A DNA stretch of 64,000 bases. It comes from Squalus acanthias. Lineage: Eukaryota. Below are positions 1 to 21,346 of the stretch, in pieces (position 1 is the first letter of the stretch; each line of letters begins with the position of its first letter). Below the pieces are notes generated by a model that was not told the DNA's origin, did no database searches, and saw only the letters and a list, made by a program, of their open reading frames with translations. A program made the translations under genes and the position numbers. The stretch spans positions 35,900,001 to 35,964,000 of the forward strand of contig CM059432.1 of the NCBI GenBank assembly GCA_030390025.1. Reading direction: 5' to 3'.

Positions 1-113
1 CCACGCAGACACGGGGAGAATGTGCAAACTCCACACAGACAGTCACCCGAGGCCGGATTCGAACCCGGGTCCCTGGCGCTGTGAGGCAACAGTGCTAACC
101 ACTATGCCACCAT
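1..113 (-). mobile_element. tRNA-derived V-SINE (HE1-like) 5' part, truncated by window edge
   Basis: Reverse complement begins GGTGGCATAGTGGTTAGCACTG...GGGTTCGAATCC (pol III A/B boxes), followed by GTCTGTGTGGAGTTTGCACATTCTCCCCGTGTCTGCGTGG. Near-identical to the copies at 18387 and 57289. Confidence 0.8.
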
Positions 114-119
114 GTTCAG

Positions 120-640
120 TCCCGCCTCCATCAGCTTCTGTCCAACCAGTGGGATTTTCCCCTGATTGACCTTGTTAAGCCCGCCCGGCGGGTTTAGCAG
201 GCCAATTAGGGCGAAGCCAGTTGCAGAGCACGTTAGCGTATGACATGTCATCTGTCAAGAATTTTTGAAAGAAGAAATGTCATCGTTTGACAGCTCTGTG
301 AAGCTGTCAAACACTGACATTCTGTGTAGTTTGATGAGTCCTTGTGTTCAGGACTCATCAAACCTTTCTACTTTGCAGAAATCAGATGACTGTTGGATCG
401 GAGGATGCAGCAGCCAGTCTGTGATCTCTACAATGGAGATGTCGGGGACTCTGGCTCCACAGCGGCTGATGGCTGCAGGAAGAAACAAAGGTAAGTTAAC
501 ATTTTCTAACACTTTACACTCACCTCACATACTTACCACTCCACACTTGCACCCATCACTCACCTCTACAGCGCACTTTCAGACCCCTCCAACCCCCGCA
601 GACCCACTGCTCACCTCCTACACCCTTTTGATGGGCTAGT
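120..640 (-). mobile_element. Fragment of the PIF/Harbinger-like non-autonomous element also at 9682-10517 and 52514-53291
   Basis: Shares internal blocks in reverse orientation (TGATTGACCTTGTTAAGCCCGCCC, TTTGACAGCTCTGTGAAGCTGTCAAACACTGAC) with the other two copies. Confidence 0.6.
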
Positions 641-898
641 CCTAAATCACACGGTGCCTTTATCCACTGGGTCACTGGGGGAAGGCCAAATGGTAAGTTA
701 TCTTCAAACCCTGCTCACCCCCCCCTAATGCACATTGAGAAGTGTCTGAAAGGTGCTGAAATTCTTTGAATATTTGATGGAACTGGTTCATGGTGGTCTT
801 ATAGAGGATGTTACAGATCTAGAAAGGGCAAAAGTTACTATTCGACTGTAAGCGGCATCACAGTCGAACTCAATCCTGTCCTCATCCAATATTCACAC

Positions 899-3425
899 GT
901 GTATAACATATTTAGAAAAGATAGAGAGGGGGGGAAAAGGGGAGGTGAAGTAGCTGTACGTATTAGGGATAACATAATGGCAGTAGAAAAAAGTGACGCA
1001 GCTATCAGCAAGACAAAAATAGAATTCATATGGATAGAGATAAAAGATAATAAAGGATCAATCACACTAATAGGTGTAGTCTACAGACCACCTAATAGTG
1101 GAAGGGAGGTGGAGGAAGAACCATACAGACAAATTAGAGAAATTAGTAAAAAACATAGAATAATAATCATGGGGGATTTCAACTACCCCGATATTAATTG
1201 GACAGAAGAGGTCGGTAAAGGGGATAAGGGAATGGAGCTGCTACAATGTCTACAGGATTCTTTTCTAACCCAATATGTAAAAAGCTCAACAAGGGAGGAT
1301 TCACTATCAGATATAGTTATGGGGAATGAGCCAGAGCAGATAAGAGAAGTAAAAGTAGGGGAACATATAGGCAATAGTGACCATAGTATAATACGCTTTA
1401 AGATGATAATGGAGAAGGGCATAAGAATGACAAAAACCAAGTTAATAGATTGGAGAAAAGCTTATTTTGAGGGTCTGAGAATAGAACTTGGGAAGATAAA
1501 ATCGGCAACAATATTGGCAAACAATGTTGTAGAACGACAATGGGAAATATTTAAAACGGTGTTCAACAGAGTGCAGGAAAAATATATTCTGCTAAAAGGA
1601 AAGAACAAACTAAACACTAATGAGACTCCATGGATGAATAAAGACATAAGGAAACAATTGAGGGTAAGGAAAGGGGCATACATTAAGTACATAGACAGCA
1701 GAGGAGTGCATGATAAGAAAGAATACGAAGGGATTAGGAGAGAAGTCAAAAAAACAATTAGGAAGGCAAAGAGGAACTATGAAATTAAATTATCAAGGAA
1801 CATAAACAAAATAGTAAAATATTTTACAGGCACATCAATAAAAAAGGAAGGTTGCGATGGGAATAGGGCCATTAAGGGATGGACAGGACAATACCACAGG
1901 TAATGATAGGGAGCTGGCAGAAATATTAAATCATTATTTCGCTTTGGTATTTACCAGGGAGATAGAACAGGTGGACATGACATTGGATGATGAGATGAGT
2001 AATGAGATAAGTGCATTTAAAATAAAAAAAGGGGATATATTAAATAAACTAATCAAACTCAAAGAGAATAAAAATCCCTGGTTCGGATGGATTGCATCCA
2101 ACCATTTTAAAAGAATCTAGGGAAGAGATAGCAGAGGCATTACTACACATAGTTAATAATTCATTAGAAAAAGGTGTAGTGCCAGAGGACTGGTGGATAG
2201 CTAACATAATACCCATATTTAAGAAGGGGGATAGAACATGTCTAGGGAATTATAGACCAGTCAGCTTAACATTGGTGGTAGGAAAAATAATGGAATCCCT
2301 ACTAAAGGAAAAAATAGAAGAACATCTAGAAACGAAAAGTATAATAATGAATAGTCAGCATGGATTTCAAAAGGGAAAATCTTGCTTGACCAGCCTTATT
2401 GAATTTTTTGAAGAGGTAACAGAGAGAGTAGACAATGGTAATGCAGTAGATGTAATTTATCTAGATTTTCAAAAGGCCTTCAATAAGGTATCCCATAATA
2501 GACTAATGAATAAGGACAGAGAATGTGGAGTCAGGGGACAAGTAGTAGAATGGATTGCTAGCTGGTTTCATGACAAAAAGCAGAGAGTTGCGTTAAAGGG
2601 TAGCTATTCACAGTGGCAGAAGGTGGGTAGTGGTGTTCCACGAGGATCAGTGCCGGGACCACTGTTGTTCACAATTTACATTAACGATTTAGACTTTGGA
2701 ATCAAAACACAATTTCTAAATTTGCGGATGATACCAAATTGGGGGGGGATAATCAATACTGAGGAGGACTGCAACAAATTACAGGAGGACATTAATAAAC
2801 TTGCAGAATGGGCAAATAATTGGCAAATGAAGTTCAACACAGACAAATATGAGGTATTACATTTTGGTAGGAAGAATAGGGAGGTCACTTATCACTTGGA
2901 GGGTGCGAGTCTAGGTGGGGTAGAGGAACAAAGGGATCTCGGAGTACAAATACGCAAATCACTAAAAGTTGCGCCACAGGTTAGCAAGGCCATTAAAAAT
3001 GCCAACCAAGCACTAGGGTTTATTTCTAGAGGGATAGAATTGAAAAATAGGGAGATTATGCTAAACCTGTATCGAACCTTGGTTAGACCACACTTAGAGT
3101 ACTGCGTGCAGTTCTGGTTGCCATGTTATAAAAAGGATATGGAGGCACTGGAGAGGGTGCAGAGAAGATTTACAAGGGTGATACCAGAAATGCGAGGGTA
3201 TACATAACAGGAAAGGATGAACAGTCTGGGTCTCTTTTCTCTTGAAAAAAGAAGGCTGAGGGGTGGCCTAATAGAGGTCTATAAAATTATGAAAGGTTTT
3301 GATATAGTGGATACAGAGAGTGTGTTTCCACTTGTGGGGAGGAGCATAACTAGAGGCCATCAATATAAGATAATCACCAAGAAATCCAATAGGGGATTCA
3401 GAAGAAACTTCTTTACCCAAAGAGT
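899..3425 (+). mobile_element. CR1-clade LINE ORF2 (APE endonuclease + reverse transcriptase), frameshifted and truncated
   Basis: Motifs GVVYRPPNS, IMGDFNYPDINW, SDHSII (APE) and [44 protein letters not shown] (RT), split over ORFs 899-1903, 1857-2120, 2092-3207 and 3217-3456. Confidence 0.93.
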
Positions 3426-4099
3426 GACCTTGGGGATGTGCAGACTCTTGATGTGATGCTTATCACGTATGGGACGGTCTAGTTGGACCTATTTTTTTTT
3501 CCTGTTTACGTTTTCGTGTGCCCATATGTTGAAAGACCTTGAATTGGGAGACTGATGGCTAAGCTGCCTGGGTAATATCAAGAGACAGTGAAATTCTCAA
3601 CGAGAAAGAAAGAAAGCACATCCGAAAGAGTTTGACACCAATAAATTAATTTTGAAGTGTAGCCACTGTTGTTTTACAGGCAAACACAGCAGCCAATTTG
3701 TGTACAGCAAGCTAATGAGATCATGACCAGTTCATGTTTTTTTGGTGGTTTTGGATAAAAGAGGAATGTCAGCCAGAACACTGGGATAACTTCCCTGCAC
3801 TTCTTCAAAAAGATTTCATTGGGTCTTCTACACCCACTTGAACAGGCAGACAGGGGCCGCAGTTCAACGTCTCACTTGAAAGACGGCACCTCCATCAGTG
3901 CAGCGGGACGGCAAGCCTGGATTATGTGCTCAAGTCCTGGAGTGCGGTTTGAAAACCACAACCTTCTGACTCAGAGGCGAGAGTCAAACCGAGTGGAGCT
4001 TTCACAATATGACACATAATTCACAGTAACAGAGGTCTGTTGTATACACTGCTGCCTGCCAGCTGTTTGATTAACCTTTGACCTGTTTGCTTTGCTCAC

Positions 4100-4226
4100 C
4101 AGACCCTGTGCCACCACTCAGACTGTGCAACAGTATGGCCCCACTGTAACTGTCCCGGCGTTCCACCTCTTTCCATGGTGCAGCGAAGCAAACTCTTGTC
4201 ATCCTCTGTCCGCAGTCCATGATGCC
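4100..4226 (-). pseudogene. tubz1: Zeta-tubulin-like gene, coding exon 4 (127 nt), frameshifted as assembled
   Basis: Acceptor tttacag|GG and donor TCTG|gtgagc. The incoming phase-1 frame reads (G)HHGLRTEDDKSLLRCTM; the tubulin-homologous KEVERRDSYSGAILLHSLSGGTGS(G) is in a different frame from ~4172. Confidence 0.8.
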
Positions 4227-4559
4227 CTGTAAATAGATTGTGGCTTGTTAGGCCTCACTGGATCAATATGAATCCTTTGCATACAGTGTAATCCTGTTAG
4301 AATGATCAATATAACCAACTGATCAAAAAAAGTAGCAATCTCTGAATTGTATTGCTGATCAGATGTCTGAACAGTGCTGCTTGGCACTCGCCAGCACTGA
4401 TTAAATAGCTGCTCAGCCTCTTGTTACCCAGCTGAAGCTCAGCCTGTCCTCACCCAAGTGCTGCTCCACCTCTCCACCCTATGCACTATTTAGCTTACAC
4501 TGTTCAGTGGACATAACCTACAAGGGCTTGGGTGTGCATAACTAAGACTGCCTAATTTC

Positions 4560-5397: not shown

Positions 5398-6600
5398 GGC
5401 TCCCGACCTCATTACAGCCTTGGTCCAAACATGGACAAAGGAGCTGAATTCCAGAGGTGAGGTGAGAGTGACTGCCCTTGACATCAAGGCAGCATTTGAC
5501 CGAGTCTGGCATCAAGGAGCCCTAGTAAAACTGAAGTCAATGGGAATCAGGGGGAAAACACTCCATTGGCTGGAGTCATACCTAGCACAAAGAAAGATGG
5601 TTGTGGTGATTGAAGGTCAATCATCACAGCCCCAGGACATTGCTGCAGGAGTTCCTCAGGGCAGTGTCCTAGGCCCAACCATCTTCAGCTGCTTCATCAA
5701 TGACCTTCCCTCCAACATTAGGTCAGAAATGGGGATATTCGCTGATGACTGCACAGTGTTCAGCGCCATTCACAACCATGCAACAACGCCTGGACAACGT
5801 TCAGGCTTGGGCTGATAAGTGGCAGGTAACATTCGTGCCACACAAGTGTCAGGCAATGACTATCTCCAACAAGCGAGAGTCTAACCACCTCCCCTTGACA
5901 TTCAACGGCATTACCATCGCTGAATCCCCCACTATCAACATCCTGGGGGTCACCATTGACCAGAAACTTAACTGGATCAGCCACATAAATACTGTGGCAA
6001 CAAGAGCAGGTCAGAGGCTAGGTATTCTGCGGCGAGTGTCTCACCTCCTGACTCCCCAAAGCCTTTCCACCATCTACAAGGCACAAGTTAGGAGTGTGAT
6101 GGAATACTCTCCACTTGCCTGGATGAGTGCAGCTCCAACAACACTCAAGAAGCTCAACACCATCCAGGACAAAGCAGCCCGCTTAATTGGCACCCCATCC
6201 ACCACCTTAAACATTCACTCCCTCCACCACCGGCGTACCGTGGCTGCAGTGTGTACCATCTACAAGATGCACTGCAGCAACTCGCCAAGGCTTCTTCGGC
6301 AGCACCTCCCAAACCCGCGACGTCTTCCATCTAGAAGGACGGGGCAGCAGGCGCATGGGAACACCACCACCTCCAAGTTCCCCTCCAAGTCACACACCAT
6401 CCTGACTTAGAAGTATATCACCGATCCTTCATCGTTGCTGGGTCAAAATCCTGGAACTCGCTACCTAAGAGCACTGTGGGAGTACCATCACCACATGGAC
6501 TGCAGCGGTTCAAGAAAGCGGCTCACCACCACCATCTCAAGGGCAATTAGGGATGGGCAATAAATGCTGGCCTTGCCAGTGACGCCCACATCCCATAAAA
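5398..6600 (+). mobile_element. Second LINE family (CR1/L2 superclade), RT 3' half plus 3' UTR
   Basis: [43 protein letters not shown]; tail GGGCAATAAATGCTGGCCTTGCCAGTGACGCCCACATCCC, whose short 3' ends recur throughout the window. Confidence 0.88.
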
Positions 6601-8152: not shown

Positions 8153-8214
8153 CAAAAGCCCAGTTGTTGCCTCTTCCTCTCAAGCCAACTAAAATGTTTG
8201 AATCTCTGAATGAC
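8153..8214 (-). CDS. tubz1: Zeta-tubulin-like gene, coding exon 3 (62 nt)
   Basis: cgttaaag|G TCA TTC...TGG GCT TTT G|gtgaga encodes (G)SFRDSNILVGLRGRGNNWAF(G), the tubulin GNNWA loop. Phase 2 in, phase 1 out. Confidence 0.9.
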
Positions 8215-10862: not shown

Positions 10863-10958
10863 CCGGTCTTCACTTCCTGGAGCAATCTCCTCACTACTTT
10901 GGGCTCACTGTCCACACACAGGGTGCTCAGCTTCCCACTGGCTGTGTAAAATGGATAC
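10863..10958 (-). CDS. tubz1: Zeta-tubulin-like gene, coding exon 2 (96 nt)
   Basis: ttgttgcag|G TAT CCA...AAG ACC GG|gtatgc encodes (R)YPFYTASGKLSTLCVDSEPKVVRRLLQEVKT(G), with the tubulin VDxEPKV motif. Phase 2/2. Confidence 0.9.
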
Positions 10959-21242: not shown

Positions 21243-21346
21243 CTGTCCACAGCGCAATTTGGAGCCTTTTCATTGGTAACCAGTTTCCAACATTCCTGTC
21301 CCACTTGATTGCCACACTGCCCGACCTGCAGCCAAATGGTGGACAT
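21243..21346 (-). CDS. tubz1: Zeta-tubulin-like gene, first coding exon (exon 21243-21348, ATG at 21346)
   Basis: ccttttcctctag|GA ATG TCC...GTG GAC AG|gtgagt encodes MSTIWLQVGQCGNQVGQECWKLVTNEKAPNCAVD(R), with the tubulin QVGQCGNQ motif. The strong acceptor implies an upstream non-coding exon. Confidence 0.92.

Follow-up and report, generated by a model that had tools for sequence, protein, structure and literature searches.

An exon 4 deletion shared with related organisms marks the zeta-tubulin gene of Squalus acanthias as a probable unitary pseudogene

Unitary pseudogenes, such as GULO in primates, are genes lost without a surviving paralogue; in general they keep their introns, are present in single copy, combine early lesions shared among species with lesions private to single lineages, and evolve with dN/dS near 1. 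Zeta-tubulin is the least understood of the tubulins, and in the accessible portions of the literature the placental loss is the one named for vertebrates. In those portions, the studies of the eutherian loss describe delta-tubulin as kept while zeta-tubulin was lost (PMC4202323, PMC4741028, PMC10707541), and delta- or zeta-tubulin, not both, is said to be dispensable (PMC4741028, citing Turk et al. 2015). From work in Xenopus, again as far as the available text goes, zeta-tubulin is known at the basal foot of multiciliated cells (PMC4741028, PMC11156431). Fish are counted among its holders by PMC10707541, the available part of which names no shark loss. Our search, with subscription journals outside its coverage, found no report of zeta-tubulin loss in sharks, and the species table of Turk et al. 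2015 could already list cartilaginous fishes. Loss of zeta-tubulin is in itself an already known kind of event.

The window analyzed here, 64,000 nucleotides at G000:C8:35,900,001-35,964,000 of the 3.71-Gb Squalus acanthias genome, contains exons 1-4 of a ten-exon zeta-tubulin gene (Table 1). We consider it highly probable that this gene, the only zeta-tubulin gene of the genome, bearing an 11-nt deletion in exon 4 that is shared with other organisms together with further lesions, is a unitary pseudogene that has been dead since the common ancestor of Squalus acanthias (organism A) and two relatives designated B and D. Like unitary pseudogenes generally, it retains its introns, has several disabling lesions, both shared and lineage-private, has no functional copy elsewhere, and appears to have evolved neutrally in coding sequence over the 2 of 10 exons compared. 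It differs from the usual case in that slow shark substitution keeps the fossil nearly intact in look. As in the eutherian loss, zeta-tubulin is gone and delta-tubulin is kept. Compared with that loss, the shark event is separate, each of its ten exons can still be read, at about 88% identity, its lesions can be placed in order, and the locus is still spliced.

Table 1. Features of the zeta-tubulin locus. Bare positions are those of the window; positions with the prefix G000:C8 are those of the contig.
Feature	Position	Strand	Remarks
Exon 1 (ATG, GQCGNQ motif)	21243..21346	-	104 nt coding; GT donor
Exon 2 (VDSEPK)	10863..10958	-	96 nt; AG/GT
Exon 3 (GRGNNW)	8153..8214	-	62 nt; phase 1 end
Exon 4	4226-4100	-	127 nt vs 138 in orthologues; flanked by AG and GT
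11-nt deletion junction	4170..4174	-	S-F-R of MESFRKEV gone; exact cut ambiguous within stretch
GGTGS(G) nucleotide-binding loop codons	4101..4115	-	no longer in frame; organism B has P for S
Intron 4, first part	1..4099	-	gene continues past window start on G000:C8
Cryptic exon, intron 4	from G000:C8 35894023	-	spliced to exon 4 in RNA-like contig
Exon 5	G000:C8 35891490-35891349	-	donor CT in place of GT
Exon 6	G000:C8 35890552-35890394	-	159 nt for 186; two in-frame deletions
Exon 7	G000:C8 35887109-35887014	-	open
Exon 8	G000:C8 35885462-35885400	-	63 nt for 76; 13-nt frameshift
Exon 9	G000:C8 35874315-35874174	-	open
Exon 10	G000:C8 35868927-35868692	-	W395 = TGA in Squalus acanthias only (vs B, C, D)

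The motifs GQCGNQ, D-EP, GNNW, and GGTGSG, which belong to the GTPase domain of the tubulin superfamily, are all present across exons 1-4. The frame entering exon 4 is fixed by the 3' end of exon 3, which reads TTT G/GTGAGA and ends in phase 1; read in this frame, exon 4 gives HHGLRTEDDKSLLRCTM and then ERGGT..., and KEVERR...HSLSGGTGS lies in a different frame. Both features had been noted in the sequence-only reading of this DNA and both are there in the letters. At the same place, the intact zeta-tubulin of Heptranchias reads ...LLHRTMESFRKEVERRD.... The earlier reading had left open a 1-nt insertion or a deletion of about 11 nt and had proposed aligning the exon from other sharks, with an expected length of 126, 135 or 138 nt. 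When a gap of 11 nt is opened at the exon 4 break, all nine of the intact 425-residue shark orthologues examined line up with the gene column by column. Exon 4 of the orthologues is therefore 138 nt long, and 11 nt have been deleted here; a 1-nt insertion is ruled out because the orthologues require 138 nt. Thus the frameshift is genuine, with an exon of 127 nt, the loss of residues S-F-R, and the GGTGSG loop displaced from its frame. No inserted letters are found at the junction in the contigs of organism B or D. A GGAA microhomology at the deletion is plausible, and would require that the lost R codon ended in G.

The sequence-only reading had further taken the frameshift for a lone lesion in an otherwise intact gene whose other exons and splice sites are clean, and had suggested a search for damage in the downstream exons. 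The claim of cleanness stands for the four exons in the window and fails for exons 5-10, where that search found five more lesions (in exons 5, 6, 8, and 10), making six in the assembly. The in-frame deletions of exon 6 fall in a loop that is also variable in reptiles. The lesions of exons 5, 6, and 8 were seen in the assembly, with indirect read support from the skipping of exon 5 in one contig at depth 2. The first stop is met at codon 137 when all exons are joined, at 243 when exon 5 is skipped, at 248 when exon 4 is skipped, and at 119 when both are, and no intact zeta-tubulin frame of 420-425 residues was found. Compared with Xenopus laevis tubz1 (NP_001082326.1) and the shark orthologues, the Squalus acanthias gene differs by its two frameshifts and two in-frame deletions, together with the dead donor and the stop, and no intact product is possible.

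A tree of 23 proteins places the read-through of the locus within the zeta clade (100/100 support), sister to Heptranchias (90/89) and apart from the delta-tubulins. This clade includes the Xenopus laevis "zeta tubulin L homeolog" (P0149), and Xenopus tubz1 and the shark orthologues annotated as "tubulin delta chain-like" belong to the same clade as the shark read-through. With unknown letters at the breaks, the read-through is identical to the protein of Heptranchias perlo at 358 of 406 scored residues. Because it groups with a named Xenopus zeta-tubulin and the genome holds a separate delta-tubulin, the identity proposed from the letters is upheld. Matches of single exons to the Pfam tubulin family PF00091 (E=7.8e-06 for exon 1, E=0.0015 for exon 4) lie below the curated whole-protein cut-off, and exon 5 alone gives no match; the orthologue P0037 passes the cut-off. 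With P0037 as the query, the PDB gave 0 sequence hits at E<=1e-30. Full-length orthologues are found in Heptranchias, Heterodontus, Cetorhinus, Mustelus, two Scyliorhinus, two Chiloscyllium, and Hemiscyllium. Odd models occur in Carcharodon (without exon 2, with RQCG and GGTGYG), Rhincodon (without exons 1-3), and Stegostoma (exon 1 frame-shifted; P0007, P0002, and P0042, respectively), and these represent either further decay or annotation errors. With two protein queries (P0037 and P0149) and one DNA query, and with the best candidates of one assembly scored, no second zeta-like locus rose above background. A processed pseudogene was also considered and is ruled out by the ten exons with introns over 52.7 kb and by the lack of a parent gene elsewhere.

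The 127-nt exon was seen in all four runs compared over window positions 3990-4340, with no alternative form. Among the Squalus acanthias runs, X7, a DNA run, has one contig over this whole stretch with 0 differences at depth 21.8 and may be the source of the assembly, and X5, an RNA-like run from a different study, covers 4100-4230 with 0 differences. Organisms B (X12) and D (X15), each represented on exon 4 by one contig, are 3-4% diverged from Squalus acanthias: B has 11 other letters and D has 10, the sole gaps are intronic (9 nt and 2 nt), and the two have just 1 listed difference in common. The presence of the same exon, with no alternative, in both further Squalus acanthias runs and in B and D speaks against an assembly error or a segregating allele, both of which had been raised from the sequence; fixation of the deletion is shown for the sampled runs. 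A run search with exon 10 pointed to 20 runs from 7 studies and 7 organisms, and the comparisons over exons 4 and 10 draw on 6 of the 20, from organisms A, B, C, D, and F; over exon 10, contigs came from three of four runs (B, C, and D; none from F, X18). The codon of the internal stop is TGG in B, C, and D, so this stop is private to Squalus acanthias, and the terminal stop is changed to AGA in B and to TGG in C and D. Organism C, compared on exon 10 only, has 1 listed difference from D in 431. Of all the lesions, the exon 4 deletion alone is shown to be older than the species splits, and it may be the founding one; being shared, it also provides a clean clade marker.

Since two related species carry the same deletion, this is likely an old, clade-wide loss rather than a fresh mutation or an assembly error, and the young loss first proposed does not fit a deletion common to B and D. 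Organisms A and B differ at 30 of about 770 letters and A and D at 24 of about 780. Some 1.5% per lineage would correspond to the order of 10^7 generations, and tens of millions of years or more, at a rate borrowed from another species, the epaulette shark (7e-10 per generation, 95% CI 1.4-14.1e-10, in the available part of PMC10587355). The upper age bound would be the split from the keepers of the gene, Heptranchias and the galeomorphs. In the accessible portion of PMC4537554 (Table 1), Squaliformes family splits are dated to 110-133 Ma and the divergence from the clade of sawsharks and angelsharks to 177 Ma; the position of the Hexanchiformes is disputed in what is available of 10.64898/2026.02.13.705779. 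Because sevengill and galeomorph sharks retain full-length proteins, the loss is independent of that in placental mammals, as the sequence-only reading had suspected. Its impression of youth is understandable because slow shark rates leave a pseudogene looking almost intact.

Among A, B, C, and D, exons 4 and 10 (2 of 10 exons) show 23 coding substitutions, 18 non-synonymous and 5 synonymous, in a small, unpolarised count made in the ancestral frame, with a two-letter codon change taken as one of each and a place at the deletion edge as non-synonymous. The neutral expectation is 21-29% synonymous, and the dN/dS estimate that had been called for gives omega of about 1.0-1.4 over these two exons. 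At 25% synonymous sites, the counts differ from those expected at omega 0.2 (P=8e-05) and 0.3 (P=0.0025), and the evidence against omega 0.5 is not firm (P=0.025-0.11). In B and C/D alone, the ratio is 15 non-synonymous to 3 synonymous (P=9e-05). The 18:5 ratio is as expected in the absence of selection. Furthermore, differences in the exons are at least as dense as those in the flanks (about 14/363 vs 14/419 for B and 15/363 vs 8/419 for D). A test for relaxed selection at the protein level, based on branch length and on changes at otherwise invariant columns, gave no signal: the read-through has a branch of 0.058 vs 0.075 for the intact Heptranchias protein, and changes at 12/268 such columns vs 14/282 for Heptranchias and 11/279 for Heterodontus. 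The read-through protein is thus not visibly degenerate, which leaves a lengthy period of neutral evolution before A, B, and D split without support. The tip branch of delta-tubulin is 0.019 in the Squalus acanthias genome vs 0.059 in Pristiophorus, and the simplest reading is a slow-evolving lineage in which the loss of the gene only shortly preceded the divergence of A, B, and C/D.

The contigs of X5 connect exons with the introns removed, and we treat this run as RNA for that reason. Two further X5 contigs leave exon 4 at its donor, one entering exon 6 and the other entering the repeat-derived cryptic exon. The former skips exon 5, whose donor is dead, and by dropping 11+142 nt restores the downstream frame, without GGTGSG. 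This join is no rescue: the loop is misread, exon 5 is missing, and the frame is lost once more in exon 8. Within the same exon, an inner AG lies just past the deletion, and its use would bring KEVERR...GGTGS back into frame with a loss of about 21 residues. It is very improbable, in our view, that the relatives make a shortened functional protein by such a route, even though exon 10, the one exon past exon 4 compared in B, C, and D, lacks an internal stop in all three. No pyrimidine tract precedes the inner AG, and the single X5 contig over it runs through the entire exon 4; the 15:3 ratio in B and C/D, the S to P change in the GGTGS loop of B, and the two separate losses of the stop codon all argue against a maintained protein, and in Squalus acanthias exons 5, 8, and 10 are broken regardless. 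As for an assembly error or an allele segregating in Squalus acanthias, the identity of X7 carries less weight if that run is the assembly's own source, and contigs drop rare variants, such that a rare intact allele could escape them. We nevertheless judge this explanation extremely improbable, given that the short exon recurs in the RNA-like run of a separate study and in two organisms 3-4% diverged, which refutes an assembly error, and that the haplotype is damaged further by another frameshift, a stop, and the dead donor.

The spliced contigs and the neighbors of the locus, KIF9 (tail to tail; L007:4653-4895, + strand) and SETD2 (head to head; L013:9192-9437, + strand), lend themselves to another interpretation, in which the protein is dead and the transcript is kept as a functional lncRNA beside SETD2. 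This may have happened at human KIF9-AS1, which we take to have the same place and orientation as the shark gene and which may be a placental zeta-tubulin remnant. The available portion of PMC5770597 lists KIF9-AS1 in the same human 3p21.3 interval as SETD2 and KIF9. We find this interpretation quite improbable because the exons are no more conserved than the flanks by the counts given above, splicing is heterogeneous with one donor lost, and KIF9-AS1 is absent from the four supplements of the lncRNA-fossil study PMC5577775, in which searches for KIF9, tubulin, and tubz returned 0 hits. The idea that the locus is a decayed duplicate, with a working zeta-tubulin elsewhere, could appeal to the large genome, to the scoring of best candidates only, and to stretches with runs of N, where a copy could sit in an assembly gap. 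It is vanishingly unlikely given that neither the protein queries nor the DNA query found a second match above background, that the locus has all ten exons and their introns, and that section 15 of PMC4202323, as far as available, describes no duplicated zeta-tubulin in any species analyzed.

We therefore favor a unitary pseudogene, and its history may be pictured as follows. A short deletion, probably arising by microhomology-mediated end joining or replication slippage, would have shifted the GTP-binding GGTGSG loop into the wrong frame. If delta- and epsilon-tubulin sufficed for centrioles and cilia, the null allele would have been tolerated and could have been fixed by drift, with neutral sequence evolution since. 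The promoter region, which faces SETD2 in a head-to-head arrangement, is likely still active, and it would yield aberrantly spliced RNA from which no tubulin can be encoded. A second loss with readable exons and with relatives that keep the gene would make basal feet and multiciliated epithelia comparable between losers and keepers, and would render the substitution of delta- for zeta-tubulin testable. It also carries a caution, as a pseudogene in a slow-clock shark, with a likely age of tens of millions of years, can pass for a single fresh lesion in one window.

In regard to the other tubulins of the genome, delta-tubulin on C11 has 8 exons, an open frame, and GT-AG introns, and is sister to that of Pristiophorus japonicus (413 of 455 columns identical; SH-aLRT 99 in a quick tree of 11 rows), a placement that suggests a squalomorph shark near to, though distinct from, that sawshark, in line with a zeta-tubulin loss within a squalomorph clade; the two epsilon-tubulin exons seen are both open. 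Exon 1 of delta-tubulin (G000:C11:715872-715704, L027) reads GQGGLQ for the GQCGNQ loop of the nucleotide-binding region, as in Pristiophorus japonicus (P0161); GQCGNQ stands in 6 of the 8 database delta-tubulin rows printed, and the Amblyraja model has a different N-terminus. No sawshark, ray, skate, or chimaera zeta-tubulin was found among 36 matches of one search, among the best 120 of 208 matches of another, or among those members of 11 clusters that were examined, and the delta-tubulins of Pristiophorus, Mobula, Amblyraja, and Narcine are present in the same protein collection. This absence could reflect missing annotation, and further losses are possible. It is tempting, if rather unlikely, to suppose that zeta-tubulin was lost repeatedly in cartilaginous fishes (in this clade, sawsharks, rays, and skates), and that the delta-tubulin motif was retooled from GQCGNQ to GQGGLQ as zeta-tubulin was dropped in a clade with Pristiophorus. 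If true, sharks would offer matched keeper and loser lineages for the role of zeta-tubulin at the ciliary basal foot.

Several minor features of the locus and genome were also observed. The exon 10 acceptor (L005:8927-8940) has two AG sites 5 nt apart, both present in organism B and Squalus acanthias; the second is one letter different in C and D, and 4 nt are lost from the pyrimidine tract in Squalus acanthias alone. The cryptic exon has its source in a 58-bp tandem repeat of intron 4 (G000:C8 about 35893940-35894085, L002), and intron 9 has a related repeat, 77% alike, directly before exon 10 (about 35869050-35869200, L005). Remnants of LINE-type endonuclease and reverse transcriptase were recognized by eye in introns 4 and 3, at about 950-3420 (+) and 5400-6580 (+) of the window, and roughly two thirds of a 264-kb stretch matches itself elsewhere. 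Large tandem clusters of tubulin lie at C3:78.5-78.8 Mb, C28:18.7-18.8 Mb, and C3410:1.1-2.0 Mb, with the C3410 cluster alone giving 12 matches to Pfam positions 102-189.
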